Made by a program: the position numbers and the translations under genes
Notes under the pieces: generated by a model
What the model was told of the DNA's origin: nothing
The model's database searches: none
Seen by the model: the letters and a program-made list of their open reading frames with translations, nothing else
In this document: positions 20,885-56,152 of the stretch, piece by piece
Layout of the letters: each line of letters begins with the position of its first letter
How positions within the stretch are numbered: the stretch's first letter is position 1
Assembly: GCA_973895155.1 (NCBI GenBank)
Contig: OZ316894.1
Span: forward strand, 25,232,709-25,296,708
DNA: 64,000 nucleotides
Direction: 5' to 3'
Source: Marsupella aquatica
Taxonomy: Eukaryota; Plantae; Marchantiophyta

Positions 20885-21098
20885 GGATTTCAAAGAAAGT
20901 GTGAGTTAATGGGGAGAGTGATTTCAAGGATGTGTAAATTGTGGGGAGCAAGTTGTTATGGAAAGATTGATTTCAAGGAATGTGCAAGTTGTGGGGAGAG
21001 TGATTTCAAGGAATGTGCGAGATGTGGGGAGAGTGATTTAAAAAAAATGTGCAAGTTGTTCAGGAAAACATAATTTCAACCAATGTGCAAGTTGTGGG
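20885..21098. repeat. Minisatellite, ~33-bp unit, about 6 degenerate copies
   Basis: GATTTCAAGGAATGTGCAAGTTGTGGGGAGAGT repeated. Confidence 0.8.
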
Positions 21099-21364
21099 TT
21101 GGACAGGTGCACAATGACACCTTTAGATCCAACTCATCTCTAGACAAAATGTCACTATAATTGAAGAGCCTGATACCCTTCGATCTAGAATGATACCATG
21201 AGAAAAGAAAAAACCAGATTGCAGAGTAGAGTGTTGAGATTTAGAATTGCAAATTATAGTGTCTGGATTCATGTGTTCAACCGGAAGCAGATCGATCTAG
21301 CTTTGAAGTGAGTACTTAACTGATCACCGAGGTCTTCAGATCGCATCTGGTCATTGAATGTATT

Positions 21365-24300: not shown

Positions 24301-27300
24301 GGGGAGTCTAATTGTATTTACTCCCCATTTGTGTTCAAGACAAAAAAAAATCTCATCACTAGAAACTGTTGAGAACTCACCTAACGATTGTAAAGACTTT
24401 TGTGACTTTTATTTTTGAGTACATTATTTTTCCATAATGCACCCCTTTTTTCAGGAGAAGATTATACAAAACACCATAAATAAAAATAAAAATTAAATAT
24501 AATTGTACCATATAAAACAAAATAATAATTTTTATTCAAGATCTCAAGATGATAACCAAATCTTATATGGTGATACTAACAAAATATCTATGAATAGAAT
24601 CCAATATAACTAAAGAACTAATATTTTTGGCCAATTCCATAGCAACCACTTCTTGGATGACCTTTTAATGTGAATTTTTTATTTCAAGGATTCACTTTTT
24701 TTTATTTGTCATTGAAAAGTCATTCAAGTTTTTATGTATAGTAATGTCCTACTTATGGGCATTAAGAAAAAATGCCTTCAAAACGCAGTCTACTGCCCTT
24801 TTTTTCAGGGCATTATATCACACAATGCTCTCTAACCAAGAAATTATCCTATTCATACTAACATAATACAAACTAAACAACAATGCAAGTAATAAGATGC
24901 AATAGTCTTTGGACTATCCATCAAATGGAAGGTTACTTGAATAAGACAATGTACTCGTTAGAGGGCATTATGGGATATAATGCTCGTAACTAAGATAAAA
25001 GGGCATTATGGGATATAATGCTTCGTAATTAAAATATTAATGTACATAAAAACTTGAGTGACTTTCACATAACAACCAAGAAAAATGAATCCATGAAATA
25101 GTAAAGTCAAATTAAAGAGTCATCCAAAAAGTGGTTCTTATATATGGAATTGGCCAAAAATATTAGTTCTTTAGTTATATTGGGTTCTATTCATACATAT
25201 TTTATTAGTATCACCATATAATATTTAGTTATTATCTTGAGATTTTAAATAAATTTTATCAATTTATTTTTTATAGTAAAACTATATTTAATATTTATTT
25301 TTATTATATTTATGGTGTTTTATATAATACTCTTCTAAAAAGGGGTGCATTATAGAAAAGTAATGCACTCAAAAATACAAAGTGAAAAGTCACGAAAGTG
25401 AATATAAATAGTGTACTAAGGGCATCTTCAGAACACACACCACAGAACACACACCACACTGACGAGACTTAAAACCCGCATCCCCTACAAGAGAAGAGAA
25501 GAGGTCCTTTTGTGAGATCTATGATTAACGTCGTGTGAATTTGATGAGTTGTATGGATATGCTTACCTCGACAAAATTTGAAAGAGCAAGCACTGGAAAG
25601 CTGCCTAGCATGACAAGTGCCATTTTCCATTGGATGATGATTGACACGATGCTCGAAACGAAAATGAGCGTGCCGTTCTGCAGAATCACTACTATTCTAT
25701 CTCCGATGGCTGCTCTCACATTGTTTGCATCCGAAGCCAAGCGTGCTGCTATCGCGCTACTGTTGTTGTCATCCTCGTCGAACCATCCGAGTTCATTTTG
25801 TAAAATAGCTGAAATTGCACCCAACCACTTCCACTTTGAGAATCAATCGAGTTCCGGGCAAGATCAGAATGCACGTGAGGATCAGTGACAACTAGAATCA
25901 GTAGGACACTCGGAGGCTGAGAACATGCATCTGCGTACCATTCGTCGTCTTAGTCGAGTCCGCAAATCTAGGGAAGGATTAAATACTGACACGCAAAACA
26001 AGACAGGAGAACATAAACGAGATTCTCTAACTTCAAACTCTTTCAATGACAGAAAATAACGTACATGGTACCGTCTGCTCAGTGAGACCAAACATCTGAA
26101 TTGGCCGGGAGATCAAAATAAAAATTAAATGCTTTCTACGAAGAATACTCGCCAGCATAATGCTACACAAGTAATTCATTCAAGTTCAGTACAAGGAGCT
26201 GCTGATGCTCACAGGCAAACATCTTCTCTCGAACATGTTTGATGAGTTTCTCGCCCCAAATCCCCATCAAATAATGCTGCAATGTGAATATGACAGGCGA
26301 CACGGCCGCTATCACGAGAAAGAGAAGACTGTATTTCGCGACCTCTTTTTCGATGTGATGATTGTTGTTGCTGTAGTATGCTGTCAATACCCCTCCCATG
26401 AACAAGGCACATACGGGGTTCAGGCAGCCAGCTCCTATTGACCCTATTGTTCCTCCCAACCCATATATCCAATCACCCTTGGTCATAGCCACAAGCCTTG
26501 CTATTGACCCCTTTGGTGCGTTGAAGAATAATTCCTTCGTCATCCGAGGCTGACCGTGTATTGCTTCAATCCTTCCTGCAGAGTCCATTGATCTCGCACT
26601 AGATCCATAACGCCTCGAAGAAATGGATAGAACACTAGCAGATGCGGTTCCATCCCGTGATATTCTGCACGATCAAACCAAAGCGTCACAGGTTCGTCTC
26701 TTTTCAGTCTAATGTTATGAAGCCACAAAGTCACCTAATGGAATTTGGGATCCAGATAACAAGATTTACGACATATATATTGAAACCAAAGCGGAGCTGT
26801 GAGTTACCGCCGAGACGTTGACATCCAAGATGTGCTCCGTTTTATGGTGTCCTCGTTTGTGGCAGCTTGTTCTTGCAGGCGGACCAGGGCAAAATATTCC
26901 CCATCTTCTCTCGAGATTAGCTCCTGGTGAGTGCCCATCTGGACGATCTGACCTTTCTGCACCACAGCAATGGTATCGGCGTTGCGGATGGTGGAAAGGC
27001 GATGTGCAACCATTATGGTAGTCCTCCCCAGCATGAGGTGATCCAGAGCTTCCTCCACAACCACTTCTGACCCAGCATCTAAAGAGCTGGTAGCCTCATC
27101 CAGTAGCAGAACCTTGGGATCCTTCACAATTGCTCGAGCTATTGCCACACGTTGCTTCTGTCCTCCTGAAAGTTGGACACCCCTCTCCCCCACCTACATT
27201 TCCAGATGCAATAACTTAAAATTTCATTTCACAAACACGGATCATTCAAAACTTCTGATAACGAAGAAATTAGATGTCCACTGAAACCTGAACAGTAGCT

Positions 27301-36416: not shown

Positions 36417-39400
36417 TTATGGAGCCACCCATGTGCATATGCAAATATGAATAAACTGCTCAGGCCCACAAAGATTGCGTGCTACCCAATCCAGAGGTAT
36501 ATCAAGACTTGGTTCAATCCCTTGAATGCGGACAACACCATTGAATTGTTCTGCACTGTCCAGGTGCAGTCCCTTCCAAACCCCTCCAGAAGATCTTAGT
36601 ATAGCCTTCTTGCCGTGACTTGGAAAGCTCCTGCTCTGTTCTTGAGATAATTCCTCTGGATCCATGTCAGCCTTGATGACATCAGGTCCTTCATGGCCAG
36701 GGGTAATGAGGTCATCACTTCCAGGTTCTGGTCTTTGTTGAGTATCATCAATGGAGGGTTTGAATTGAATGTCAACACTCTCTACATCATGTGTGCCAAG
36801 ATTTCCTCTGGTCACATCAGAGTAGGATTTAGGCAATCCCGAGTTCCATACTATCAGTTCATGTCTATCACTGGTTGTGACCGCGGGCGCAACGGTTTCA
36901 ACTTCTACAGGCAACGAGGGAGAGGAGAAAAGGTGAGGTACAACCTTCATCAGAGCATCACGTAGAGTGAGCACAAAACCTGCACGGATTAAGGAAATGA
37001 TCAGGTAGAGCACATCACGAAAGAAACTGAGCTTACCTTCGTCAGCAGTGAACTAGCAATCAACTCATCCTGAGGGAGGAGAACCATACACAGTGTCACT
37101 CTCTAGAAAGCAACCTTCACAAATTGCATAGACGAACCTCCTGCAGTCACTCCCAATACTGCCATCTCCTGAAAGCCAATCATAAAAGCCTACGGTAAAC
37201 TAGGGTCAAAGAATTGGGACGGTACCTTCCTCCTTTGGAACGTCAATTGGTCTTGTCATATAAACTAACTCATCCCACGAATTAACAGGAGGGACATCAT
37301 ACAAAACATCCAATTTATCCTTCAGTCGTCGTATGTACAGTCTTAACGGTATCCTCCCAGGGAGTACAGCTTCACTTCCTGGATGTCACAAGATTGGCCA
37401 CTTACTGCTCAGTGATGTATACAGGAACAGCTTGTACGGCGGTGAGCACTAGTAACGGTAACCTAAGGGCGGAAGAAAATTGTCCTTGTTTAAATACAAT
37501 TCAAAAAAATAACCAACAACAAAGAGCAAAAAAAGCGGGTACCTTTGCATCAAATCTAAGGTGCTTCTAGAGAAGTAAAGTTTCTTGACATGAGCCTTTG
37601 TTGCCTGGGTATCCCTCACAAAAGCAAATTAAAATTTCGGGTAAACAAAATCTTACATACCTCATCTAAGGTCTGACATCTAGCATACCTAATCTAACGG
37701 TCGACTTAGTATCTGTTTCCAGTTCGCCACTGGCCGCATGCCGTACATGAAGCCTTCCTGAGTTTGCGCTTGAACCAGGTCTCAGGCGTGTAGAGATATG
37801 ATCAAAAGTTTCCATGTCACCTGCAAAGGCAAAGCTCTTCAGACGAGAACCACGATTGCTGTAATTGTAGGAGCTTAAGTAATGCCTTTGCCATCGACGT
37901 GAAAAATCATGACAAAGATGACTTCAGGATGTCAGCCGCGACAAATACACTAAGCTAACCGTGGCTGCAGCATACTTTTTATGAAGAATATATGCAAAGA
38001 GTAACTCTTAGCTCATGTCCAACTGAGCAATAGAAGGTCAGGATAGGTATCTTTCCCACTGAATCAGACCTTTCACGACACTCTTCCAAAGCTCGAATTG
38101 ATCTACTTGAGACATATTCATTACACTCTTTATGCTTCCATACATCACATAAGATGCCTGCACAAACCAAACACTAAATCAGTACCTGCAGAAGTATCTG
38201 TAATGGTGTAACCTGCCTAAATGACCAGGCAAACATCAAAGCCAGCCAAACTTCTGACACTTCACACCAAGCAAGAAAAACCTAACATACCTCTTTCATG
38301 GCATTGATGAAACTCCATTTGACAGCCTCTTCACCCTCACAAGGACTCAACAGTTCTGTGGGATATGCTCTGAAATGCACCTGGAATAATGTGACACAAA
38401 CATGAAGATAAATGTTGAGGCTTAATCTACAACAGATTTATAAACCGACATCAAATTTGACCCAACCAATACGCTGCCTTATGTAGCCAAACTTCCAGAT
38501 TGCATACCGTCAGCTTCCATGGCCGTTCTGGTTCAGCACAAAGTAGGTCAAAAAGGACTCCAGTGGGTATGTGCCTGCACTCAGAAGGTATTCATCTCAC
38601 TGTCATGTTTAAGAATACTGGAACAATGGCCGTTGAGCGAAACGATGGAACTGTTTGGGAAGGATGATGAGATGTGAGAGAACAGGTAAGACCGGCAACT
38701 GTTAGCTCAGTGCTGCATTGTTCAGGGAGACATTTTGAACAACTAAAGGGTGAGACCCTCCGTCGACAAGAGCATACCATTTCAGAGGAAGCCCCTCATA
38801 GTCGAACCAAATTGTGTCGGAACCTGGAGGCAGAGCACTCTGAAAATGAGGCTTGACAGAATCAGCAAGCAAAGGCAGGTACCCATTGCGAGGAGCCAAG
38901 ACCTACACAACAGAAGAAGACCATTTAGGCCAGTTAGACAACTTGCCTGCCTCCTTGCTCAAACTAGCGTTCATTTACAACATTCTTCTCCACACAAATA
39001 GAACAAGCTGTCTTTCCTACTGCACGCGAGACCTAAAGTCATTTGATAACGCTTATGAGGTAGCCATTTAGGGTGTCATGAAATCGTTCTTGTGGATCTC
39101 AATTTTATAAATTGCCGAAGATATATTTTAACATCTGACATATACTCTACATTAGTCGCCCAAACTGGTGAGTTTTCCTCGGACATTTTACTTTCATGAT
39201 ACTTAGTTTAAATTTTGACACATGACTCTTGGGCTAAATAGCGCTGCTTCCTGCTACCTTAGGTCTCTAAATTTCCTACCCTAAAACTTCAACAGCATAT
39301 GAGCAAGGAAATGAGACTTAGGAGCCAAACAAACGATTCATTGTCTCACCAGGAAAGGAGAGGGGGCAGGAAGGCTGGTGATTTCCGAGATATGGAGGTC

Positions 39401-40807: not shown

Positions 40808-41639
40808 AAGTGTTATCGATCTCCCTTCAACACGTTGCCTGCTCTGCAGAGATGCTCTGCCACGTTTGGTGCTGTGCCGCCTTTGGGTCTTCCGGTGCTG
40901 AAGGCATACGGTACTGGACTGACAGAGCCCCTGAAATTACGGCACCATATCAGTCAATTATGCAGAGTGCAAGACTCCGTGTGAGAAACGACAATTGATT
41001 TTCATTCCAATTTCATATTCCTGCACTTTATTCCATAGATCCGATTCTAGAGTAGCCTTTTGAGTTTGGGGGTGATTAGGGCTAAGTGTATCCTAACCCA
41101 CCTCAGTACCTCACCTCCAGAGGGGGTAATGAGATGTAATCCCCAAGGGAGGTAAGCCCAACCAGGCTACAGCCTATCAGTTATTGAGCAAAAGCTGTAA
41201 GTAAAATTTTGAAACATTCATCTCACTTTTACACGGCAAAATTGTTGTTTGACGTTGATTGCGCCTTACGTGTATTCGCATTCGAAATTAAGAATCCCCA
41301 GGCCAGGCTGGTACAGAGGTTCCTTGGCTCACTTGCAGGGTAATGCCTCATTAATTTCTATTGAAACAAGAACAAAATATCCAAGGGGCTTATGGTCATC
41401 AGGATGATAGGGCTCCTTGGTCTCCATTGGGTGATAGTTATGACAGCTCAGATGCCGGGAGTGACAGTCTAGACTCCTGGTTTTTTGCATCATTTTCTGA
41501 TCGGGGTCTTTTCACCATTGAAATCTTGTTTATATATATCACACTATCAAAAAACAAAAAGTTTCAAAAGAGGAGACAATACTTAACTCTTTACCCATTG
41601 AAAGAGTGGCATTTTCAATGGGTAAAGAATTGAGTCTAG

Positions 41640-41955
41640 AAAGTGTGCAGTGTTTGGGGTTGCCTGGGAATCATGGTCATTTGCAGGTAACAGTTTTGAG
41701 TGGAGGGGGTGCTGTGTGTTTGGGATTAGGAAATGGTGGTTTGTGGGCCAAGGTTTGAGTATATGGGGTGTTGAGTGTTTGGGGTTAGGAATGGTGATTT
41801 GTGGGGTAAAGGTCTGAGCATAGGGGGTGTTGAGTGTTACTTAGTTTGTGATTGGGAATGATTGTTGATTTGTTGCTAAAGGTCACTGTGGAGGCCATGT
41901 TGAATGTTTGAGGTTGGGGATTGGGCTTGTGGGTAAAGGTTTGAGTACAGTGAGT
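41640..41955. repeat. G/T-rich degenerate tandem repeat (~60-bp unit), left part of the retroelement target
   Basis: GGGGTGTTGAGTGTTTGGGGTTAGGAATGGTGATTTGTGGGGTAAAGGT variants. Confidence 0.75.
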
Positions 41956-42288
41956 TGTCACACCATTCTGAGGAGTGTAGTAGTATATCGTGCTATTAAT
42001 TAGAGTATGTACGTTTGGTATGAGTGCTATTGGAGCCGATAAGGTTCTGTCAGGTTTGTGTGAGAGGGTACTTCTCACTTGTGAGGCATTGAAAGGTCAT
42101 CTTTCAATGTTGAGCCTTGGAGAGAGAGGAGCTTGAGTGTGGCTATGGTGGCTGTGAGCTCCGCTTGTGTAACGTGGATTCCTTGAGTAGTGCAAGGTGC
42201 GTTGGCTTGACATACGTGTGTGATCGGATCGGTGCGGGATCGATGGGGTATTGTTGACCGAGATCGTTGTGCCGATTGTATGGAGATT
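41956..42288 (+). repeat. Terminal repeat A, copy 1 (333 bp)
   Basis: Matches 51088-51420, with 4 substitutions seen. Confidence 0.95.
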
Positions 42289-42300
42289 ACATTGAAAGAT
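42289..42300 (+). promoter_or_regulatory. Putative self-priming primer-binding site
   Basis: ACATTGAAAGAT is the exact reverse complement of ATCTTTCAATGT (42099-42110) inside repeat A; no TGG-type tRNA PBS follows the repeat. Confidence 0.6.
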
Positions 42301-42559
42301 CACATTTGAAATCTACTGTACGGACTGTGCGGATAGAAGTTTGATTGATTGAGTTGTTGACGGTTCGTGGTAGCTCGGATCGTGTGTTGTTATCGAATAG
42401 ATCGTTGGTATCTTGACCTGTATCGTTGTTGTCCGATCGGCCTGCTTCCCGATCGATGTACAGATCTGTGATTGGTGACAGGTTTTGAGTTGGAGGTCGA
42501 TTGATGATTCGTGGAGGAAAGTGAATGTTGAGTAGATGTTGGACAATGGAAGTCAATCC

Positions 42560-43105
42560 GTGAGGCTTCAGATCCGATTGCCGACTACTGTGAGGCTTCA
42601 GATCTGATTGTTGGCTACTGTGGGGCTTCAGATCTGATTGTCGGCTATTGTTGGACAATGTTGGCAAGGCGCAGGTGAAGCGACGACTCTTTTCCTGAAG
42701 GAACGGAGCTGCCAATGCTCCATGTGGTGGTATCATCATTTCAGTGAAAGAAACGGGGGTCAAAGGTGTTGAATCAAGCTGCTGCCAATTCTGTGGAAGG
42801 GCTGCGTTTTTCATGAAGGAAATCGACAGTTTTCGGGAGCTTTTCGTGAAAGAAGTAGTCGTTTCTGGGGTCAAGTGTGAGGCGCACAAGGTCACCCATC
42901 CCGAAAGTGCTCGCGCGAGGCGACGCGTGAGGTCACCCATCCCGAAAGTGCTCCCAACCGCGAGCGCGAAGTCACCCATCGTGAGCGCAGGCAGGCGCGA
43001 GGTCGAGGTCACCCATCCCGGGGCTATTCCGGGCCGTGAGCGCGAGGGGAGGCACAAGGTCGAGCGCGAGGAGGTCACCCATCCCGGGGCTATTCCGGGC
43101 CGCAA
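42560..43105. repeat. Tandem repeats in the element leader
   Basis: A 30-bp unit GTG(A/G)GGCTTCAGATC(C/T)GATTG x3 (42560-42650) and GTCACCCATC x5 in a CpG-rich block (42890-43100). Confidence 0.8.
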
Positions 43106-43847
43106 GCGCTTAACTAGCAAGTTCTCATCCCACCTTGTGTACACACAAGCTTTGACAACTTGTTGTTTAGATTCAAGCGCCAGTGGGCTTTATACACTTC
43201 CCGGTTTGTTTAGAGGCCTATTCTAGGCCAAATCAGAGGCTGTTTGAGGGTTTTTGATACTTCTGAGTCCATCTAGACTCACAGATTGAACCAATTTTGC
43301 CTTGGTTCTCATCTACAACATTGGAGTGCCATTGTGAAGCCTATTATGAAGGCTCTTCCTTGAACCTTATGCACATTGTCATATTGATTTGCATTTGCTT
43401 TTGTGTGAAGAGTTGAATGGTATCCATTCTTGTTTCTGGATCCTCTTCACACATGTTTCCTGTTTATGCGCCATGTTAGTTTCGTGTGGGCGCTTGATTC
43501 CATAGGAGTGATCCGGGTTTGCAACTGGACATTCTAGTGTGCTGTGTATTTCTCTCTTGGTGATGTTGGAGTGATGCCCAACACACCATGGTGAGTGCTT
43601 GTGGTGCTGACAGGGATAGATTGCCCTTAGGGTTAGCACATAGATTAGGTTAGGGTTGGTCACCACGGATTCTTCTGGTGCTGCTGGATTACCCGATGGA
43701 CGACGGACCGGTTTCACTCAGAGTGGGGCACAGTTTTGGCCAGCGGCATTGGTAGCAGTCAGTAGTGCAGCTTCAGACAGTGATTCTGATGAGGACTCAG
43801 TGACCAGTTCTCCTCATCATCAGGTGGTTGCACCTTTGTTGTGGGAT

Positions 43848-45314
43848 ATGGACGAGATGTACGGGGCTACAAAGGGCCCACGACGATACTCTGGTGCAGT
43901 TGGCACAATTGATCTGGATGACTTCATCCAGGAGTTTGATACGTGGTGCGATATGCAGACATTGCGTAATGTCACGTTGTTTACCCCTTTCATGGCATGG
44001 AAGGGATTATTCCAGCATTTGGAGGGGCCACTCATGGATGACTACCATGAGTTTCGGAAGGCTCATTTGGTTGAGATTGAGGCATGGAGGCAGCATTGGT
44101 CGCCTAATTACGTGTCCATCACCTATGGCACTAGTGCGGCTGCCCAACCAATTGCCACAGCTGCTGCTTCTTCTAGCAGCACTAGCCAGAGTGGCACACC
44201 ATCCACCAGCAGCACTCCAGCAGCATCCACCACTACTCCTGCCGGTGTGATTGTGACAGGAACTGGAGTTGCGCCAGCATTTAATCCTGTGGTGGAATTC
44301 TTTGAGGTACTGAAGCAGAACTATCAGGGTGTGAGAACTGATAAGTTGAAGGGTCTTCAGGAGTTCCAACGCAAGACTGGAGAGAGCCTACGTGAGGCAT
44401 ACACACGTATGCGCAGATTGATCACTGTCACCAAGGGAGTGACAGAGGCTCAGGCAGTCCAGTTTTGGTATGCAATTCTGGACAGAGAATTGCGACGTAG
44501 AGTGAGAGATGTCACTCTGCTTAGGGATGCAGATCCCACATTAGCAGTTGTTTTCACCCTTTCTGAGCGCATTGAGCTCAATATGGTGAATGAGAAGGTG
44601 GTGACTTTCGGATTTGCCAAGGAAGCACCAAAGGCTGCATCTACATCCACACCACAGCCTACTGCACGGAAGAGCCAGAGGGAGAAGCCTACTGCACGAG
44701 AGTCTACCAGCCAGAGACCTGTGCCCTCTTATGCTGGACAGCAGTCAGGATGTTGGACCTGTGGTGGGGATCATGCACAGAGATATTGTCCAGATCATAG
44801 AGGATCAGGGGGAGCATCAGCGCCTGATCAGCGACAGTGTGATCACTGTGGAGCTCCTGGACACACCAAGGATAGGTGTTTCTCACTCCACCCTGAGTTA
44901 CGGAGAGGAGGATCCCGTACACATGATCAGGGAAGAGGAGGAGGAGGTAGAGGTGGTGGACGTGGTCATGGCATGCCACATGCAGGGAGACAGGGAGGTG
45001 ACGCTGCCCCTACTGTAACCATAGATCCAAAGGATGCTAAGATTGCTCAATTGGAGCAACAACTAGCTGCCATGGCTAGTTCCCAGGTGAGACCTAATTC
45101 TGGTAATGGGGCATCTACATCCTATGGACCTTCCACATCCCATGGTCCTTCCACATCTTATAGAGCTGATGGAGACCTTGCCACCATGGGATTCATGTGT
45201 GGCACTGCACATATTGATGCATCAACAGCTTTGACACGTGGGGCAGCCAAAGCTCTTGAGCCCCGAGGAGCAGTAGTGGAGTTAGATCCACAAAGGGGGG
45301 ATGCACGTCGATAG
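43848..45314 (+). CDS. gag: Gag with two zinc knuckles
   Basis: FQRKTGESLREAYTRM (retrotransposon gag-like), CWTCGGDHAQRYC and CDHCGAPGHTKDRC, RGG-rich stretch; ATG at 43848; TAG at 45312 with the frame open beyond it. Confidence 0.85.
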   Translation: MDEMYGATKGPRRYSGAVGTIDLDDFIQEFDTWCDMQTLRNVTLFTPFMAWKGLFQHLEGPLMDDYHEFRKAHLVEIEAWRQHWSPNYVSITYGTSAAAQPIATAAASSSSTSQSGTPSTSSTPAASTTTPAGVIVTGTGVAPAFNPVVEFFEVLKQNYQGVRTDKLKGLQEFQRKTGESLREAYTRMRRLITVTKGVTEAQAVQFWYAILDRELRRRVRDVTLLRDADPTLAVVFTLSERIELNMVNEKVVTFGFAKEAPKAASTSTPQPTARKSQREKPTARESTSQRPVPSYAGQQSGCWTCGGDHAQRYCPDHRGSGGASAPDQRQCDHCGAPGHTKDRCFSLHPELRRGGSRTHDQGRGGGGRGGGRGHGMPHAGRQGGDAAPTVTIDPKDAKIAQLEQQLAAMASSQVRPNSGNGASTSYGPSTSHGPSTSYRADGDLATMGFMCGTAHIDASTALTRGAAKALEPRGAVVELDPQRGDARR

Positions 45315-46150
45315 ACAAAACTTCCTCAGTCTTTTACATTGTCAGAGACAGTTCAGACTGCCTCTATGAACCCGGTTCGGACAAACCCTGATGTGGGTAA
45401 GTTGGCAGAATCAGGTAGTGATGCAGCAGGGATGACAGGTACCTTGTTGGGGGCGGCTACTGCCATAGTACGCACCCCATTATTTTCAGCGACAGACATG
45501 CTGAACTTGGAAGTTGGTCCTGCAGAAGTATTCAGATTGGCAGCTACACTCTGTGAGGACACTCCAGTGGTTGCTTCCCATGCAGAAGCAACTTGCAGTG
45601 TTGATGCAGTAAAGACCATGCCACCTACTGCTACTAGTGAGACATGGCATGCAGCAGCAGCGAGGTTGGTGGATTTACCAGCACGCCCTGCATTTGAGAG
45701 GACTAGGTTTAAACCTAGTGTTGTGTCATTGGATAATCGGAGTGGTATCTTCCGATTAGTTGGGCCTTCTGGAGCAGTATACCAGCCAGAGAGAGTGTTA
45801 CTGGATACTGGTGCTCAGCCCTTGATGTTGGGGAAGTCTGCCATACGTGGGTTGGGATTGCGTCCAGAGGATTTGGAGGATTGTCTCTTTCTCATTCAGA
45901 CTTCATTGGGGGGACCTACACCTACATAGCATATCACCAGGAGACCACTTGATTTGAGGATTCAGGAAGGTCATACCACAGATAGCTCACAGATACAGGC
46001 GCGAACTATTCTGACTAAGGCAGAGTCATATGATGTGTTGGTGGGATGTACAGTGCTCTACCCCATGGGATTTATTCTTGATTTTTGGGAGGAATCAGTG
46101 TCATATAGACCTGATTGGCAGTCAGGAGATGCTCGATTGAGCAAATTGCC
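45315..46150 (+). pseudogene. Retropepsin-type aspartic protease region, interrupted by TAG at 45927
   Basis: VLLDTGAQPLMLG active site and downstream YDVLVG; same frame as gag. Confidence 0.8.
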
Positions 46151-46499
46151 AGTGAGATTTAGTGGACCTATGGGAGGCCCTAAATCCACACCATTGTCTT
46201 TGGCAGCATTCAGTGGTGTAATTGCTGGACCTGATGATTTGATTGAGGGTAATGCGAATGCAGCCGATGTTCCACCATTGGAGGAGTCTCATGAGGAGCA
46301 CATCATGCGAGGATTACCTGTTGGCAGTGTTGTGCCACCAGTGTGGGGCATTGCACAAGCCTTGCCACAGGCAGCAGCACGATTGGTACATGATGCATGG
46401 CGTCATGCTTTTACACCACAGTCAGGAGTAGAGCAGTCTCTTGCAGATGGACCTGTGACTCTTTCACCATTGGATACCACTCCTATTGCTTGGCAGTAT

Positions 46500-47455
46500 C
46501 CACCGGAGGGTATTTGTTTGTTGGATCTTTTTGGTGGGATTAGCACTGGATTGGCTGCTGTTCTTCAGGCAGGAATTCCTGTGCGTCGTTATTTGTATGT
46601 GGAGACAGATGAGACAACACGGAGGGTCTCATTGCGACATGTGGCTATGTTGGTGGATAGATATCCACAGTTGCTGCCAGTGGATGCTGTTCGTGGTTAT
46701 CAGCATGCACTACCTGCTGATATTTCATTGTTGGGGGCGGATCATCTACATCGTGTTGGCCCCATTGATTTGGTGATTGCTGGTTGGCCATGTCAGGGCC
46801 AATCTAGAGCTGGCATTGGGCATGGACTTCATGATCCACGCTCTGCATTGTTTTGGGAGATGTTACGGGTGCTACGTCATCTCCAGCTACATCAGACACA
46901 GTCTCCAGCATACATTTTGGAGAATGTGCCATTGTTAGGTGATGATCGTAGTCGGATTGTTGCTAGTATTCACCAGGTGAGGTCTTGGATTGGACCTGCT
47001 GTGTTATTGGATGCTGCACGTGTGGGTTCTCGTGCACATCGTCCACGCTTGTGGTGGACTAATTTGATCCCATGTGAGGTGCTGAAGCGTGTATTTGACA
47101 GCATTCCACGCTCACCAGCCTTAGTGGTGGATAATATTTTGGATCCAGGGCGTCGTGCACAGGGTGTGACCCAACCTGATAGACCTCCATTGGCAATGGT
47201 CAATTCAGTTGGGTGCCCACGTTGTGCATTACCCACTCTTGTCAGCCACTCTACTTCATATGCATTCAGAGCAGGTGGCCCTGGACTTGTATGGGACACA
47301 GCTCTCCAGCAGTTAGTGGAGCCTACTGCTGATGAGAGAGAGCGTGCTATGGGATTTTTGACTGGCACCACTGCAGTTGCCTCTGTGTCAGAGGGTTTGC
47401 GGCGCCAGGTTCTTGGTCAAGCAATGGATTTGAATTGTTTAACTTGGATTATTAG
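46500..47455 (+). CDS. C5 cytosine DNA methyltransferase domain (DNMT3-like motifs) inside the polyprotein
   Basis: Motif I LLDLFGGISTG, II YVE, IV AGWPCQGQS (catalytic PC), VI ILENV, VIII HRPRLWWTN, IX ERERAMGF, X RRQVLGQAMD; no stop inside the domain. Confidence 0.92.
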
Positions 47456-47648
47456 CTTGGGAGTAGCAGACCAGTTGCGGATGCGCTCTGCTGGAATTAC
47501 TGATTGTCCCTTGGTGAGCTTGCGGTCCACTGAGACAGTATTGACCACAGTTGGGGGCGAGCAGACAGTCCATGGACCTATGGCAGAATTGGCCAAAGCT
47601 GGACAGATTGTTGAGCAGGAAGGGACTGCTCAATCTACTGCTAAATAG

Positions 47649-49079
47649 CAATCATCGGCTATCTCTTCTACCCTACAAAGAGATATTAGGGATTTGGTGG
47701 AGAGTTGGGAACCACAGCTTGGCCCTAAGTTAACAGGGGAGGAGAGACGTCGCATGCATCGATTCCTGAAGAGTTATTGGAATTGTTTTGCATTCAGCAT
47801 GAAGGATTTGGGGACATTGAAGGGCCCTGGTATTCAGATTGAATTGGCTAGTGATGCGCCAATCTTTCGTAGACCATACCGTTATAGTGACATGGAGAGA
47901 GCTCTGATTCAAAGCAGAACTCAAGATTTGTTGGAGGCTGGATTGGTGGAGATTTCATATGGGGAGTATGCATCTGCCACAGTGATGCCAGCCAAGAAGG
48001 ATGTGCATGGCAATTACACAGATAGGCGCATGTGTGGTGATTACAGACCTATTAATCGCCAGACAAAATCTGATCGATATGCCATGCCCACACCTGAGGA
48101 GATCTTTGATGTTGTGGGGCATGCAAAGGTTTTCAGTTCATTGGATCTGAGGGCAGGATACCATCAGCTTCCAATTAGGCATGCTGATAGGTCCAAGACA
48201 ACATTCTGGGGGATTGATTCTTATGGCAAAGATCGTTTGTATCAATGGTTATTCTTACCATTTGGGTTGAAGAATGCACCAGCTGAGTTCCAGAGAGTCA
48301 TGGATCGAATCCTTGCAGGTTTGGATTTTGTCAGATGTTATATTGATGATATTTTGGTCTATTCTTCTACTGTGGAAGAACATCAGCAGCACTTGCAGAC
48401 TGTGTTGGAGAGATTGAGAGCACATGGGTTGAAGCTCCATCCTAGCAAGTGTAAGTTCTTCCAAGACCAGATTGAGTATTTGGGCCACACCATATACCCA
48501 AGAGGATTGGGTGTACAGCAGACTAAAGTGGAAGCCATTACACAAATTCCTTGTCCTACTGATGTGAGTAGAGTTCGTGCATTCTTGGGATTGGCGAGCT
48601 ACTACAGGAGGTATGTTAAAGGATTTAGCCAACTTGCTAAACCTTTGACCATACTCACTAAGTTGGATCAGGAATGGATTTGGGGTGATGACCAAGAGCA
48701 TGCCTTTCAGGAGTTGAAGCAAAGGTTGGCATCATCCCCTATTTTGAGAAGACCCATTTTAGGCAGACCATTTCAGCTACACACTGATTGGAGTGGAGTA
48801 GGACTTGGAGCAGTGCTGACTCAGAAGGATGATGAGGGGAATGAGTTTATTGTGGCTTATGCCAGTAGATCAAACAATTCAGCAGAGGCTAAGTATAGCT
48901 CTTATGAGGGAGAGTGTTTGGTAGCAGTGTGGGCTGTTGCACACTTTCGTTGCTACTTGTTTGGTAACCCCTTCACCTTGATCACTGATCATCAGCCTCT
49001 TAAGTGGTTAATGGAGTCTGACAAGCTTATAGGGAAGCTTGCACGATGGGCATTGTTGTTACAGGAGTATGATTTCTAG
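47649..49079 (+). CDS. pol: Reverse transcriptase and RNase H (Ty3/Gypsy type)
   Basis: RMCGDYRPIN, LDLRAGYHQ, LPFGLKNAPAEFQR, YIDD, FLGLASYYRRY, LHTDWSGVGLGAVL, YSSYEGE, ITDHQPL; ends at an in-frame TAG (YDF*VVHRPG). Confidence 0.95.
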   Translation, partial: QSSAISSTLQRDIRDLVESWEPQLGPKLTGEERRRMHRFLKSYWNCFAFSMKDLGTLKGPGIQIELASDAPIFRRPYRYSDMERALIQSRTQDLLEAGLVEISYGEYASATVMPAKKDVHGNYTDRRMCGDYRPINRQTKSDRYAMPTPEEIFDVVGHAKVFSSLDLRAGYHQLPIRHADRSKTTFWGIDSYGKDRLYQWLFLPFGLKNAPAEFQRVMDRILAGLDFVRCYIDDILVYSSTVEEHQQHLQTVLERLRAHGLKLHPSKCKFFQDQIEYLGHTIYPRGLGVQQTKVEAITQIPCPTDVSRVRAFLGLASYYRRYVKGFSQLAKPLTILTKLDQEWIWGDDQEHAFQELKQRLASSPILRRPILGRPFQLHTDWSGVGLGAVLTQKDDEGNEFIVAYASRSNNSAEAKYSSYEGECLVAVWAVAHFRCYLFGNPFTLITDHQPLKWLMESDKLIGKLARWALLLQEYDF

Positions 49080-50774
49080 GTGGTGCATAGGCCTGGAAAA
49101 GTGAACTTGGATGCAGATGGATTAAGCCGCAATCCATGTACCAGTCAGCAGGATGAGACTGGAGCCAGATGGCATGATGAGTCAGATAAGGAGATGGTGC
49201 CAGGATGGCATGCATCTGCCTTTCTTTGTTGGGTGTCAGCATACAGTGGATCTGTGGACTCTACTTCATTGGATGGAGTGGGTGATGAGTCTTCAGATGT
49301 GGATGTTGGTGAGGTAACTTCTGGACAACAAGATATTCACAATGATGTGAGAGTGTTGGAATATCTGCGCAGTGGTTCTATTGTTGGCAGTGTTGATGCC
49401 AAGGAACGTGACAGGGTTCTACAGAGAGCCAAGAGATTTCGATGGGAGGGAAACCATCTTTTGAGAGTACTGCATGATGGTAGGATGTTGGTGGTACCAA
49501 AACCATCACAACGAGTACATTTGGTGCGACATGCGCACGAGGAGTTGGGTCACTTTGGTGTGAAGCGCACTTATAGCTTGCTGCAGACACAGTATTGGTG
49601 GCGTGGTATGCACACTCATGTCCAACAGTTGATAGCTAAGTGTGTGGTATGTGATAGAGTGAGAGCATCATTTAATGCTCCCACTCCCCAGTTGCACCCG
49701 TTGCCGATCATGGGTTTGGGATATCGTTGGAGTTTGGATTTTGCTGGTCCATTACCTCTTACCCAACGTCATAATCGGTATGTTTTGGTCATGGTGGAGC
49801 ACTTCTCCAAGTGGATTGAGCTAGTGGCGTTGCCAGATAAAGCCAGTGGAGGAGTTGCTGCTACATTTTTGGATCGTGTACTCAGTCATTTTGGAGCACC
49901 AGCTGAGGTGTTGACTGATCAAGGAACTGAGTTCCGTGGAGAGTTTGAGAGTTTGTGTGAACAAGCTCTGATTGATTATCATACTACCTCTCGTGATCAT
50001 CCTGAGGCAGATGGATTAGCTGAGAGAGTTGTACAAACTGTGAAGAGAGGATTGCGTAAGTATGGCTTGCAGGTTGGTCATCTGGGAGATTGGGATCTCC
50101 AGCTATCTTGGTTAGCTATGGGCTACCGTTTCAGTCGGCAAGCATCACTTGCATCCTTCTCACCCTACTTTTTGCTCTATGGTAGAGAGCCAGATTTGCC
50201 AGCAACTATTCGTCGTCATGCTGCACCAGTTGTGAACTTGGATGATCCTGATGTTTGGGTCAAGGTGTGTTCAGAGAGAGCACGGGTATTTCAGAGAGTG
50301 ATGCCCATGGCTTTTGACAACCTTGCCATTGCCCAACATCGTGATACTTTGAGGTATGCCACTATTCGTGGAGGAGGTTACCGTGCAAGCATTCGACGAT
50401 TTCATCCTGGTGATTATGTTTATTTGCAGCAGACAGCACCCACGACACTTGATGTGACCGCAGGCCGGACAATCTTACGTGTGCGTGAAGTGTTGCCTTC
50501 TGGTGTCCTGATGTTGGAGGGACGCGATGGTATGGTTTGGAAGGATCATGTGCGCAACTGTGCACCATGTCACCTTCCCAACATTGATGGTACAGTAGAT
50601 CCAAGCTTGGCACATGTTCGTGCTGGCTTGAAATGTATGTTGTGTGGATCTACTCAGGGAGCAGCTACTATGTTGATTTGTGATAAGTGTTCTAGAGGAT
50701 GGCACATGTCATGTTTGACACCACCATTGCAGGTGATTCCTAGTGGATCATGGTTGTGTCCTCAGTGTCGGTGA
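49080..50774 (+). CDS. DDE integrase with C-terminal PHD finger
   Basis: HEELGHFG...CVVC (HHCC), WSLDFAGP, LTDQGTEF, DGLAERVVQT; C4HC3 finger CMLC..ICDKCSRGWHMSCL..WLCPQC at ~50634-50768. Confidence 0.93.
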   Translation: MVHRPGKVNLDADGLSRNPCTSQQDETGARWHDESDKEMVPGWHASAFLCWVSAYSGSVDSTSLDGVGDESSDVDVGEVTSGQQDIHNDVRVLEYLRSGSIVGSVDAKERDRVLQRAKRFRWEGNHLLRVLHDGRMLVVPKPSQRVHLVRHAHEELGHFGVKRTYSLLQTQYWWRGMHTHVQQLIAKCVVCDRVRASFNAPTPQLHPLPIMGLGYRWSLDFAGPLPLTQRHNRYVLVMVEHFSKWIELVALPDKASGGVAATFLDRVLSHFGAPAEVLTDQGTEFRGEFESLCEQALIDYHTTSRDHPEADGLAERVVQTVKRGLRKYGLQVGHLGDWDLQLSWLAMGYRFSRQASLASFSPYFLLYGREPDLPATIRRHAAPVVNLDDPDVWVKVCSERARVFQRVMPMAFDNLAIAQHRDTLRYATIRGGGYRASIRRFHPGDYVYLQQTAPTTLDVTAGRTILRVREVLPSGVLMLEGRDGMVWKDHVRNCAPCHLPNIDGTVDPSLAHVRAGLKCMLCGSTQGAATMLICDKCSRGWHMSCLTPPLQVIPSGSWLCPQCR

Positions 50775-50938
50775 AGCCGACTAGTTATCATTTGTGTTCT
50801 CTTGGCAGATATGGATTGCAGGTAGGTGATCGATGGGGCTCACTTGCACCCGGCCTCCTGATCTTCACACCTAAAAAGGTGTATATCAACCTTGTAGAAC
50901 TCATGGCTAGCTAGAGTTAGGGGACCTTACTCCCAGCT

Positions 50939-50947
50939 AGGGGGGCG
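50939..50947 (+). promoter_or_regulatory. Polypurine tract
   Basis: AGGGGGGCG immediately before repeat B copy 1. Confidence 0.7.
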
Positions 50948-51558
50948 ATTGTGGGTTTTGGACATGTGTGGACATGAGTTCCACTTGTATTCCATTCTCT
51001 TGTATTTGTGATGTGGCAGTGTGACTATGTCTGGATGTATGTGACAAGCGATGTATGTTGTGTAGCGATATGTATGCGCACGACAGCTGTCACACCATTC
51101 TGAGTAGTGTAGTAGTATATCGTGCTATTAATTAGAGTATGTACGTTTGGTATGAGTGCTATTGGAGCCGATAAGGTTCTGTCAGGTTTGTGTGAGAGGG
51201 TACTTCTCACTTGTGAGGCATTGAAAGGTCATCTTTCAATGTTGAGCCTTGGAGAGAGAGGAGTTTGAGTGTGGCTATGGTGGCTGTGAGCTCCGCTTGT
51301 GTAACGTGAATTCCTTGAGTAGTGCAAGGTGCGTTGGCTTGACATACGTGTGTGATTGGATCGGTGCGGGATCGATGGGGTATTGTTGACCGAGATCGTT
51401 GTGCCGATTGTATGGAGATTATTGTGGGTTTTGGACATGTGTGGACATGAGTTCCACTTGTATTCCATTCTCTTGTATTTGTGATGTGGCAGTGTGACTA
51501 TGTCTGGATGTATGTGACAAGCGATGTATGTTGTGTAGCGATATGTATGCGCACGACA
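50948..51558 (+). repeat. 3' composite end: B1 (50948-51085), GC, A2 (51088-51420), B2 (51421-51558)
   Basis: B1 and B2 are identical 138-bp copies (ATTGTGGG...CACGACA); the B1/A2 junction is the palindrome GACAGCTGTC. Confidence 0.95.
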
Positions 51559-51562
51559 GAGT

Positions 51563-51865
51563 CTTCAGTGGTTGTGGTTAGGAATGGTGGTTTGCGAGAA
51601 GGTAAGGGGGTATTGAGTATTTGGGTTGCAAAAGGAGGTTTGTGAGTAAATGTGCTGTTGAGTGTTTTTTGGGGGTTAGGAATGTTGGTTTGTGGCTAGA
51701 CGTCTGAGCTGTGGTGTTTGAGCGGGATGGTGGTTTGTGGGAAAGGTTGGGGGGGGTGAGGGCCATGAGTGTTTTGAGGTTGAGAATGGTGATTTGTGGG
51801 TAAATGTTTGAATGGGGGGAGAGAGTGTTGAGTGTTTGGGGTTGGGGCTTGTGGGTTGTTGAGAG
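51563..51865. repeat. G/T-rich tandem repeat, right part of the retroelement target
   Basis: Same GGTTAGGAATGGTGGTTTG / TTGAGTGTTTGGG motifs as 41640-41955. Confidence 0.75.
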
Positions 51866-54054
51866 TTTCAGGTACTACTACGGAACCCTAAGCCATTCTT
51901 ATCTGCTCCAAATTGCAACGTTGATGTTGGATGATTTGGCATGCTTATGTAAATTCACACACAGGAGCCTTCTGTTAGGAAATTTTCAGAGTTTATATCT
52001 AGCACAAACGATGCACCTAGCCTAGCTGAAAGCCTCTCTTTGAGAAGGAGGGAATTGTGAGTTTGATATGGCCTTTAATTCACTTATTAATAAGTATGTT
52101 TGTCAATTCCTTGAGACCTGCAATAACACACTCAGAAACTAGTAATATGTGTTCTATGGCTCCTTTGACGTAACTAACCTCCTCTTAAAAAGACCCTCCA
52201 CCCATGCAAGGCAGCCTAGGCCCTCATCAAGAGAGACTCAAACCTTTGATCGCCTATCCATTCACCTCTAAGTCATTGAACATGAACCCACGGCAAAATT
52301 CTTAACAAACAAATCATATCCCCCTGTCACCATAAGACATCTTTATTGAAAATCTCACGTTGTATACCTCTACAGCCCAGGCAACTAAATGACAAAAACA
52401 ATCTCCTTTAAATATGAATCTTCACATATTAATTCACCCTCTATGTACATCATGCTACGGGTGGCTAGGTTCAAACCCAAGGTGACTCTGGTGTGCTTTG
52501 AACCAGGGCTGAGTCTTTCTAATACTACTTTTGTTAAAAGCGGAGTATTCTTCATCCATTTTATAGTGTGTCTGTTTTCCTGTTTAATTATAAGAAATAG
52601 TGGGAGACAAAACTTGTAGCGCCCTCTCCCAGTTCAAGGGACTAATGGTAGCTTAATAACTGTGTTTTATCACTAGCTTTGCAATGATAGTACCACTCTC
52701 TCATAGTGAACTAGCTTTGGATCTTGAGATACAAGCTCATAATCTGTATTTTTGGGCTTAGCAAAATATATTAATAATTTTCCTTTGTTCTCAGTGAGTC
52801 GCTGGCTTCCATGAGAAGCCAATCAGGGGCATGGACCCAAGTGTGGTATTACAACTAAAATTAGCCTAGCATGGGTCAACTGCAAGGTCTGGTGCTAGAA
52901 TTACCTGGGCCCGGCTCCACTGCTAAAATTACCCGAGCATGGGTCCACCCCTAGACTTAGCTCTGGACGTGGGTTGGCTTCCTATTGTTGCCCCAACATT
53001 TTATTTCCACTAAATACACAGATATGGAGCACTGATCCAGATGTTTTGATTAATATTCCCTTAGTTAAGAATACTCATAGCAAAGATTGCATTGGATTAA
53101 GCACTGGTGACTGTCTTTTATCTCATTGTATAATAGACTTGCCTTGCCCATACCTCACCAAAATTGGTACATATACATACACTGGATACTTGTTCCAAAA
53201 TTGGAAAGGTGGACAAGTTTTGATTCAAAGTAACTAAAGGGAGAGGTACCAATACCAAAATTGGAATGGACCAATATCGAGATTGGAAGCCACGCTTAGC
53301 CCATACAGTCAGAATCGAACCACATCTTCCTCCTCAATTTGGTTCTAAATTTGTCCACTTTTCAATTTTGTCACAAGTATAGGCTAAGCTTGAGATCCTG
53401 TTATACATAAAGATGGTCTCCAAGTGCAAGGTGAGTCTACACTTCACATAACCACAGCAAATGCAATCGCCAATCTTCGCTGTGGCTATGCCTTGAGTTG
53501 GAAGCCAACACGCATTCCAAGAACACTTCACTACATGTGCTGCACAGTGTGGTGCTCTACTTTGCTTGCCCATCGACACTTTGCTTGCTTGTTTGCTTAC
53601 TAGTTTACTGTTGAGCTCTTGGATGGCTTGTAGGCTTGGTGGTTGAGGGATTTGTGTATGTGTGTGTATATAGATGTGTGTATTGGGCTCTGCCACCACA
53701 GACCAACCTTGGCACCCTAAGTTGCGCCCTCTTCTTCAAGTGGGAGAACCTCATCCCCACTTGTTTACTCTTCGGACGTGGATCAGGCACTTTCATCTCA
53801 TCTCCAATTGACATCATTTGCTGGAGAAAAAATACAATGTGAGTCATTCCCACTTTCTCCCTTTGTTTCAAAGACTCATCCCCACTATTGCTTGTCTATT
53901 TGGTGCTTGGCGCCCTCTTTTGGAGTCCCATGTTGCGAGGAGTCCACCCCACTTTTTGCCATCTAATAACAATTGAGTACCATCGTCCCCACTTTGTATG
54001 CTGTCCCAATGATTCTTCACACACCCCCACTTTTCGTGTCCAATTAGTGAGTCA

Positions 54055-54253
54055 TCGCCCCTAGTGCTGTTTTCTTTTGCCAGTCAACTCCACTTTTGCA
54101 GTCTATTACGTTGCGTCATCTCGGAGTTTTGGCGTGAGAAGTCATTCCCACTTATCGCCCCTAGTGCTGTTTTCTTTTGCCAGTCAACTCCACTTTTGCA
54201 GTCTATTACGTTGCGTCATCTCGGAGTTTTGGCGTGAGAAGTCATTCCCACTT
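54055..54253. repeat. Essentially perfect ~100-bp tandem duplication within a CCCACTT motif array
   Basis: ATCGCCCCTAGTGCTGTTTTC...GTCATTCCCACTT occurs twice. Confidence 0.9.
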
Positions 54254-55063
54254 TGGCGCTGTAATAATACCAGAGCGGAACGCAGTCCCCACTTTTCCAA
54301 AAGACGTTCACGCAGAATGAAATGAATACGTCTCTGCTGATCTGCTCTCATCAATGTGTATGTAAAGAAGAAGAATCTGGGTCATGGCTCTCCGGCGCTG
54401 CGATCATTAGAGGAGCTCAAGAGCGGCCGGCATCGGTATAGAGATAGCTTGTTTGGTAACCAGGTGACATTCGTGCGCGCATCGGAGCAGTTGATCTTGG
54501 GGTCTGCCCCGAAGATCGACAAACATGGCCGCATATGGGGCGAGCTTCGGAGATAAAAAAAAGCTGTGAGGCGTTAAGTTTGACGATGGAGTCAGTGCGG
54601 TGGTGCCAGCTCGAGGTATTTGGAGTGCGCGGAAGCGAGTGAGTGGAATTGGTTGTTGACTCGATGGAATGGCAGGCGCGACGACTGGGTTGGGAGAGAA
54701 ATTACTTTCTGCGCAGAAAGGTGTCGGAGATGCGGAGGTGAAGGAATCGCAGTCCCTGGAAAAATGCGGTCCCACGATTGCACGAGAAATTGGACGATTT
54801 ATGACTTTTGGACACGAGCGAGGAGGATATTTTGCTGAGGGAGGAGCAGCTTTTCGTGGGGCCTTGGTACTGGACTGTAGCATGACTGTGGGTCTGGGTC
54901 TTTCGTTGTTTCGTTCCAATATCGTCATGGTCCGGTGTGGCTGATGATTCGACTCGTTCGTTTCTGTCATGTTGATTTTTTTGCAGAGACGTGTTCCGGT
55001 GTCGATTCGTGGTAGGAAGGTGGAGATCGTTTGTGTGCCTTGACTGCGGTACGTCGAATAATA

Positions 55064-56152
55064 ATGTGTTTTCCGCTCATCTCTTGTTGGCGGTGGGAGC
55101 TTGTCGTTCGGGCGCAAGTATGGCGAGCACTGATGGCCCTGGGGATGAATTTCCACAGAATGCCGCATCCGCGCCCGCGCGCTCCTACGTTCCGCAAGCG
55201 CATTAAGACCACGTTATCGCCACAGCCTGGGGAAATTGATTTGCTCTTCTACACGCCCAGCGACTACAAGATACCTCTTGGCGCCGAGAGACCAGCCAAC
55301 GCCCGAGGGTACCCTGCCGTGGTCAATTTCCATGGCGGAGGCTTCACACTCGGTCAGGCCAGCGACGACGCGCGATGGGCGGACGCCGTCGTGCGCAGGA
55401 TGAATGCTGTTGTGGTGAGCGTAGAGTATCGATTGGCTCCCGAGCATCCATTTCCGACGGCTGTAGAGGACGGCGTCGATGCGGTCCTCTATCTTCTGGC
55501 CCATTCGGACGAGCTTGGCATCGACACGCACCGAATAGCCACCAGCGGATTTTCGGCGGGCGGAAACCTGGCATTTACGGTGCCGCTGAAGCTCCAGGAT
55601 GTGATTAACAATCCGCAACCCGACCCGGAGCAAGAACAAGGTCGGCTCAACAGCAGTGTGGCAGTGGCCGCACCCGTGAAGACCAAGGCCAACCCTATCG
55701 TCGCCATCGCCGCCTGGTACCCTATTACGGACTTTGCCACGTATACGCGACCCCAACGCCGACTTAAAAGTTCAAGGCCGGAGAAGGATCTTCCGCACTT
55801 CTTCACCGAGCTCTTCGACGCATCCTACCTCCATCCGCTCGCCGAGTTGTCCCTCTCCAGTCCCTACCTCTCGCCCGGCCTAGCGCCCCTGCAGATGTTA
55901 CGTGCGCTGCCGGACCACATCATCATATACACCTGCGAGTGGGATGAGTTGTGCATGGAGGCGGAGCGGATGAGAGATAGGTTGACGAAAGAAGCAGGAA
56001 AGGACGTGGTTTATCACAAGATAGCTGGGGTGGTACATGCGTGGGATAAGAGTCCGAATCCGCTGAAGTGGGATCAATCCATAGAGGAGCTTTACGGAGA
56101 TGCTTGCACTGCTTTGAAGCAGGCGTTTGATAAGGTATCTCACGAAAATTAG
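55064..56152 (+). CDS. Intronless hormone-sensitive-lipase-family alpha/beta hydrolase (Abhydrolase_3), fungal-like
   Basis: Oxyanion motif NFHGGGF, VEYRLAPEHPFP, nucleophile GFSAGG, Asp in CEWDEL, His in VVHAWD; start codon uncertain. Confidence 0.9.
   Translation: MCFPLISCWRWELVVRAQVWRALMALGMNFHRMPHPRPRAPTFRKRIKTTLSPQPGEIDLLFYTPSDYKIPLGAERPANARGYPAVVNFHGGGFTLGQASDDARWADAVVRRMNAVVVSVEYRLAPEHPFPTAVEDGVDAVLYLLAHSDELGIDTHRIATSGFSAGGNLAFTVPLKLQDVINNPQPDPEQEQGRLNSSVAVAAPVKTKANPIVAIAAWYPITDFATYTRPQRRLKSSRPEKDLPHFFTELFDASYLHPLAELSLSSPYLSPGLAPLQMLRALPDHIIIYTCEWDELCMEAERMRDRLTKEAGKDVVYHKIAGVVHAWDKSPNPLKWDQSIEELYGDACTALKQAFDKVSHEN

Follow-up and report, generated by a model that had tools for sequence, protein, structure and literature searches.

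Here we describe a Ty3/Gypsy retrotransposon of the liverwort Marsupella aquatica whose insertions, like those of its relatives, end at a palindrome inside the predicted long terminal repeat (LTR). The element lies in a 64,000-nucleotide stretch of contig OZ316894.1 (assembly GCA_973895155.1, positions 25,232,709 to 25,296,708 of the forward strand; the whole stretch is referred to as the window) and reads GAGT-A-gag-protease-DNMT3-reverse transcriptase (RT)-RNase H-integrase-PHD-polypurine tract (PPT)-B-GC-A-B-GAGT, in which GAGT is a 4-bp target-site duplication (TSD) and A and B are the parts of a split direct repeat. The B-GC-A unit is predicted to be the LTR, with outer ends that lack a conserved TG...CA, and the attachment (att) site within it, CACGACA-GC-TGTCA, is almost certainly the integration end of the lineage. 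The window element is no longer functional and belongs to a lineage of plant Gypsy-DNMT3 retrotransposons; termination at the internal palindrome is a trait of that whole lineage and a new variant of Ty3/Gypsy integration. The repeat layout was already in print; what is new relative to the literature covered is the att site, the nature of the termini and of the TSD, the self-priming, the A...B form and the occurrence in land plants.

Copies were tabulated from short-read contigs and metagenome loci, in place of a long genome assembly. For the family to which the window element itself belongs, contigs of four sequencing runs were compared with window positions 50500–51424. Behind position 51085, the last base of the GACA of B, at least 40, 20, 39 and 43 contigs per run continue with unlike loose letters, and their agreement of only 0.35–0.38 indicates that the flanks are unrelated; 7 and 8 further contigs among those listed diverge at 51086. 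Before 50948, the letters of at least 39, 17, 17 and 33 contigs per run end in AAGATT and resemble the end of A; there are also joints at which the end of A returns to the start of B. The GACA of B is therefore the usual right end, and the A/B joint is recurrent.

Related loci were collected with an alignment of 21 integrase proteins as the query. The best 80 of 570 confirmed metagenome stretches (41–80% identity) were retained, and their ends were classified by self-comparison and by searches with the repeat units. Twenty-seven loci carry B-A-B, 24 carry a single B followed by flank, 7 are odd or cut (L003, L027, L039, L040, L045, L059 and L068), 2 have a B that is cut by the contig end and 20 have no visible B, the contig being too short or interrupted. 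A canonical LTR end, B-A followed by flank, was found at none of the 80 loci. Merging of same-flank duplicates left 22 single-B ends and 20 B-A-B ends (7 in subfamily F2, 12 in F3 and 1 in F4), to which a nested F4 neighbour in L078 is added. A 5′ end is visible in 12 elements and in an inverted neighbour in L074; all 13 begin with the half-site of A. A preliminary description of the window had predicted that TGTC...GACA ends would recur, and they do in the related loci, the GACA end also in the contigs. Of the forms that it foresaw, A...BAB and A...B were found; ABA...B, which it had held to be possible, is absent from the 13 visible 5′ ends. There were no solo A-B units in the flanks of the 80 loci. 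A derivation of A...B from older A...BAB elements by loss of A-B was also considered and found no support, as the load of C>T and G>A changes in B was 0.108 versus 0.100 (21 versus 17 copies, p 0.41), although this is a weak test.

When C>T and G>A decay plus one further change are tolerated, the motif CACGACA-2 bases-TGTCA is present at the B1/A2 boundary in 26 of the 27 B-A-B loci, its middle being GC or deamination products thereof. The sole locus without it, L072, has a deletion in B1. The element termini, TGTCA...CGACA, are the two halves of this site. Beyond this site, alignment of A fails between subfamilies (best E 0.33), good alignment of B is obtained only between F2 and the window, and the RT of F3 is 40–46% like that of the window. 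Both ends are visible in 13 copies (the window, 5 A...BAB and 7 A...B). The 4-bp TSD is exact in 7 of them and agrees at 3 or 4 letters in 11; among 156 cross pairs used as a control, 2 match exactly and 4 match at 3 or more letters. No exact match was obtained for lengths of 3, 5 or 6. The distinct 4-bp TSDs that had been predicted are thus present in 11 of the 13 two-ended copies.

The junction between the left flank and A1 is crossed without a difference by contigs of runs X13 and X15, which come from two studies, one of which is possibly the source of the window. A contig of run X16 leaves the window match at 41955, the last base of the TSD, and continues with 104 other letters; it is likely to represent the empty target site. 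The preliminary description had named two observations that would speak against it. Misassembly is not the case at the 5′ end, which two runs bridge, and no canonical BA...BA copy is present among the 80 related loci. That an ordinary LTR element was rearranged in this one case, or misassembled, might be argued from a TG located 2 nt inside B and a CA behind A1, which can be read as ordinary LTR ends, and from the derivation of the related loci from short-read assemblies. However, dozens of independent flanks meet one and the same end; the layout, att site and TSD length are alike in three subfamilies; and the repeats differ by 5–16% within loci, so they have not been collapsed. The recurrent flanks, the related loci and the TSDs refute this reading, to which we assign practically no probability. 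Canonical ends at TG 50950 and CA 42291 were rejected for the same element: the CA lies inside the self-priming site, F3 (in which B begins ATACATG) is without the TG, and no locus ends there. The earlier statement that B-GC-A lacks TG...CA ends needs one qualification: a TG stands 2 nt inside B (50950) and a CA just behind A1 (42290–42291).

On rechecking, the layout and coordinates given previously (A alone at the 5′ end, PPT-B-GC-A-B at the 3′ end and GAGT on both sides) proved exact; the DNMT3-like domain, the PHD finger and the self-priming pair had been overlooked. The body between A1 and the PPT is 8.7 kb in length. A1 and A2 differ at 4 of 334 positions and B1 and B2 at 0 of 138, which indicates that the insertion is young. 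The decamer GACAGCTGTC (51082–51091) is the sole perfect 10-mer palindrome within the B-GC-A unit, and self-comparison revealed no further copies of A or B elsewhere in the window.

Assignment to the DDE-integrase Gypsy elements was borne out by the rve match (Table 1) and by a best PDB match to Ty3-G Gag-Pol (1.1e-20). The order gag-protease-RT-RNase H-integrase is that of Ty3/Gypsy, as is the combination of a DDE integrase with a short (4-bp) TSD; two whole LTRs bounded by a primer-binding site (PBS) and a PPT, which define the integrated ends of Ty3/Gypsy elements, are seen at none of the 51 complete 3′ ends and none of the 13 visible 5′ ends. No tyrosine recombinase was detected on either strand, in the 5 segments of the main frame and 12–13 other open reading frames (ORFs) of at least 100 amino acids. 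The spacing between the second D and the E of the integrase is 34 residues, not 35 (window 49911–50024), and is the same in 101 of 102 matched proteins; it may be linked to the unusual substrate of the enzyme. The methyltransferase contains PCQ and ENV motifs. A DNMT match is present in 37 of the 80 related loci, many of the others being too short. L059, of subfamily F4, encodes a protease and an RT with no DNMT match, so the repeat layout is perhaps independent of the methyltransferase. A domain search found no chromodomain at the C terminus, where a PHD finger takes its place.

In the window, the 12 nt directly behind A1 are complementary to a segment that lies 144 nt into A. At the corresponding place, F2, F3 and L003 have other pairs, up to 15–17 nt long. 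Of 12 copies tested, 10 have a complement of at least 8 nt, and the remaining two are decayed copies of F2. A covarying pair of this kind is a signature of self-priming and, together with the PPT before B, predicts reverse transcription of the ordinary LTR type. The window and 5 of 7 F2 copies have a blunt A/B joint, the other F2 copies show one filler and one extra base, and 12 independent F3 copies display six forms (1–4 primer-site letters, a PPT G or a deletion). Among the oddities are a 17-nt filler in L016, a deletion in L043 and a retained PPT letter in L075; in the window and F2, one A is common to both sides of the joint. The combination of a precise cut site and a sloppy joint fits cleavage by integrase at the former and end joining at the latter. 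In F3, B1 and B2 share 2.8 non-deamination variants within a copy, compared with 0.37 between copies (0 of 20000 permutations; two duplicate or damaged F3 rows and three F2 duplicates were left out), and no alignment column separates B1 from B2 save one G/A site. These copy-specific common variants indicate that B2 is re-copied from the template of B1.

We favour an explanation in which the integrase would cut the internal palindrome in cDNA whose outer ends have been joined to give a free, closed 2-LTR circle. Self-primed and PPT-primed reverse transcription would produce a linear BA-body-BA cDNA without usable att ends, and host end joining would then link its right end (A) to its left end (B), imprecisely. 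At the att site of the left LTR, the integrase would nick each strand behind the CA and thereby produce 2-nt 5′ GC overhangs like those of ordinary 3′ processing; strand transfer 4 bp apart would then yield A...BAB, the GC being lost as the overhang. The A...B form could originate from circles with a single LTR, or when both att sites are used; lacking terminal redundancy, it would be a dead end.

Several observations weigh against this explanation. As a 2-LTR circle has two att sites, ABA...B would be expected; however, B precedes A at 0 of 13 visible 5′ ends, and none of the 7 single-B elements whose 5′ end is visible has the form ABA...B (overall, 0 versus 6 A...BAB). Its absence demands an extra assumption: the left att site may be favoured because it becomes double-stranded first, as the established scheme for LTR elements would imply if it applies here. 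L041 and L075 have no 4-bp TSD (L041 matches at 1 of 4 letters), the plain blunt joint in 5 of 7 F2 copies would also be expected from inheritance, and the test of variant sharing between B1 and B2 is not significant in F2 (p 0.14). In the host family, a recurrent left end, with flanks before A, was not seen among the contigs listed, beyond which lie 140 further loose ends; the tabulation of 3′ ends likewise covers the contigs listed, and rare canonical ends may occur among 484 further rows.

Two alternatives dispense with the free circle. The integrase could cut the left att site of a linear cDNA and insert both of the halves that it holds, after which host repair would join the outer ends in the chromosome. 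Precise termini, TSDs and imprecise joints would be accounted for equally well, and A...B (24 of 80 loci) would represent one half-site from each LTR; yet chromosome breaks predict that one-ended insertions and flank deletions should be common, whereas the TSD has no more than 1 mismatch in 10 of 12 two-ended loci, and the bias against ABA...B is left equally unexplained. We regard this route as unlikely. A comparably low probability attaches to a jump of the finishing plus strand from the right end to the left end, by which B and the att site would be re-copied and the integrase would cut the first and last att sites of a longer linear molecule. Such a jump would yield A...BAB and A...B and not ABA...B, which matches the data without added assumptions, and it agrees with the A shared at the joint in the window and F2 and with the 1–4 primer-site letters kept at F3 joints. 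The fold-back in L027 through the primer site to an att half-site further suggests that end-directed template switches may occur, but this is a single contig that possibly reflects an assembly fold-back, and the filler in L016, the deletion in L043 and the PPT letter in L075 resemble the products of end joining. By sequence alone, the closed circle, repair after integration and the RT jump are not separable.

A further possibility, replication like that of PAT and Ngaro, would have the transcript extend into B2, so that the A/B joint is inherited and a new circle junction, B/A, is used by the DDE integrase. The A1-B1-A2-B2 layout is the same as in those elements, according to the accessible part of PMC4157794, and a blunt joint in 5 of 7 F2 copies would be expected. 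Against it, the PPT before B and the covarying self-priming pair behind A speak for ordinary LTR-type priming, B1 and B2 share copy-specific variants and do not form separate lineages, and the joints vary; we therefore consider it very improbable. Returning to integrase cleavage of end-joined cDNA, we lean towards a history in which an old streptophyte Gypsy lineage moved its att site into the LTR, came to require end-joined cDNA, in the form of the 2-LTR circle that is regarded elsewhere as a by-product, as an obligatory intermediate and, with a DDE integrase, converged on the split-repeat life cycle of tyrosine-recombinase elements.

Some loci show unusual structures. L003 reads B-att-A-PBS and was counted only for the att site and self-priming; it is more likely to be a collapsed assembly, although it could be a one-LTR circle. 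In L027 (3244–3878), B-att-A and the primer site are followed by a fold-back of the first 180 nt of A, which ends at the att half-site and continues into flank; this may be snap-back cDNA cut at att or an assembly fold-back. In L068 (3540–3850), the PPT and B are inverted and lie beside the primer site and the final 20 nt of A, like an autointegration product. The F4 loci (L059, L055 and L078 1574–2024, minus strand) have B-A-B with a decayed att site. Many contigs of the four runs join B (50948–51085) to diverged A-like ends, a hint of further subfamilies or of non-autonomous derivatives that share B.

Table 1 Features of the Gypsy-DNMT3 element in the window
Feature	Position	Strand	Evidence
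Left 4-bp TSD, GAGT	41952..41955	+	Sequence
Repeat A1, starts TGTC, left integrated end	41956..42288	+	Self-comparison; flank junction bridged by contigs of X13 and X15
Predicted transcript start and self-primer	42099..42110	+	12-nt exact complement of the site behind A1; covarying in relatives
Self-priming site (PBS), directly 3′ of A1	42289..42300	+	Complementarity
Single gag-pol frame with four premature TAG stops	43644..50774	+	ORF
Zinc knuckle at 44838; protease motif at 45801	within gag-pol frame	+	Motif
C5 cytosine methyltransferase, DNMT3-like, in the protease/RT interval	46512..47513	+	PF00145 4.6e-11; best PDB matches DNMT3A 3e-11
RT core	48018..48494	+	RVT_1 1.5e-34
RNase H	48681..49070	+	RT_RNaseH 2.7e-35
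DDE integrase (H2C2 and core)	49503..50204	+	rve 9.9e-13
C-terminal PHD finger	50634..50768	+	PF00628 1.2e-10
PPT, abuts B1 on its 5′ side	50939..50947	+	G-run before B also in F2, F3 and L003
Repeat B1	50948..51085	+	Self-comparison
Internal att site CACGACA-GC-TGTCA, both termini fused across 2 bp	51079..51092	+	Kept in 26/27 B-A-B loci
GC spacer B1/A2	51086-51087	+	Sequence
Repeat A2	51088..51420	+	Self-comparison
A/B joint, predicted joining of the right and left cDNA ends	51420..51421	+	Sequence, contigs, relatives
Repeat B2, ends GACA, right integrated end	51421..51558	+	Many unrelated flanks behind the same end in four runs
Right 4-bp TSD, GAGT	51559..51562	+	Sequence

The element is surrounded by a degenerate G+T-rich repeat with a period of about 59 bp (41619–41955 and 51563–51870). 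Elsewhere, the window contains a tandem array with units of about 380 bp and 91–94% identity (3582–5502), an imperfect inverted repeat of 1 kb and 76% identity that resembles a fold-back element (24395–25391), and a perfect tandem duplication of 100 bp that is possibly an assembly artefact (54054–54253). Host genes are represented by exons of paralogous ABC transporters, a fragment of ATG5 and an alpha/beta hydrolase (9707–22621, 36420–37052 and 55016–56149).

Whether 2-LTR circles are genuine substrates of integration is an old dispute in retrovirology. The lineage described here is a natural one that apparently depends on internal cleavage by its integrase, and its 14-bp site makes the question directly testable. 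Split direct repeats can, moreover, arise from an ordinary LTR by a shift of the cut site, with no change in the class of enzyme. As LTR finders require two whole TG...CA repeats, the elements are invisible to them, and a high-copy bryophyte lineage is likely to be missing from annotations. Twelve Marchantia polymorpha gene models (P0121–P0131 and P0152), among 46 matches, match the DNMT3 region of the element at 53–62%; these are likely to be retrotransposon pieces filed as host genes.

Gypsy elements of the alga Klebsormidium nitens with a Dnmt3 in pol have been reported (de Mendoza et al. 2018; PMC5890265). The legend of Fig. 4c of that article gives them a DIRS-like repeat arrangement, and that of Fig. 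1e defines the DIRS layout as A-coding-B-A-B. KnitGypsy-Dnmt3 thus shares with the window element, as far as the accessible parts of the article go, the Gypsy domain set, a DNMT3 inside pol and the DIRS-type repeat layout. It differs in being reported from one alga, and those parts hold no account of termini, TSD, att site, priming, an A...B form or a mechanism; a term search of three supplementary files added nothing. The article's yeast test of the K. nitens methyltransferase domain was inconclusive. The preliminary description held that nothing of this kind was known for LTR retrotransposons, which is too strong with regard to the repeat layout. The accessible part of a 2026 preprint names ‘Gypsy-DNMT3’ of streptophytes with no further detail. 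Literature searches, which covered listings and the articles cited here but not subscription journals, Repbase or preprint supplements, yielded no description of circle-based integration, of TSDs or of an att site inside the LTR for any LTR retrotransposon.

Relatives of the integrase are found in Calypogeia, Riccia, Marchantia, Sphagnum, Klebsormidium and Haematococcus. The nearest named relatives of the window element are from liverworts and Sphagnum, and the nearest named integrases are from liverworts. In a quick tree of 41 integrase cores, the window stands next to proteins of Riccia and Calypogeia and to F2; two K. nitens rows fall within the fork of F3 and the window group (support 92, unstarred) and two fall outside it. 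K. nitens integrases are 52–57% identical over the core, and the four K. nitens proteins compared, which do not include the sequences of the 2018 study, have no DNMT stretch.

In the bacterial DNA transposons IS3 and IS911, a DDE enzyme opens ends that abut, a few bases apart, on a circle. Their junction is newly made by the transposase; here it is a templated part of the LTR. The A1-body-B1-A2-B2 split direct repeats are also those of PAT, Toc, Kangaroo, Ngaro and Viper as presented in the accessible part of PMC4157794, but those elements have a tyrosine recombinase, in place of the DDE integrase, TG...CA termini and 4-bp TSD seen here. Tf1/Sushi and Tcn1 elements resemble the present lineage in self-priming instead of using a tRNA primer and in their occurrence in non-seed plants, and differ in having a chromodomain and ordinary LTRs where we find a PHD finger, DNMT3 and split repeats (PMC6317226, accessible part). 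REM1 has an integrase that is described as truncated and reversed in the part of PMC2774666 available, unlike that of the window. Retroviruses provide a parallel for the cleavage itself: according to the available parts of the respective articles, foamy virus integrase cuts the CA-containing palindrome of the circle junction in vitro, on both strands and with 2-nt 5′ overhangs (PMC1180852), and HIV-1 2-LTR circles have been reported to feed integration (PMC4372172); nothing on circle cleavage was found in PMC2615609. The likeness lies in a CA-containing palindrome that is cut on both strands to give processed ends. In those viruses, the palindrome is the LTR–LTR joint, and cutting it restores the normal two-LTR linear form by a side route, whereas the elements described here carry the palindrome within the LTR, retain the joint in their genomic copies and, as a rule, have the permuted form.

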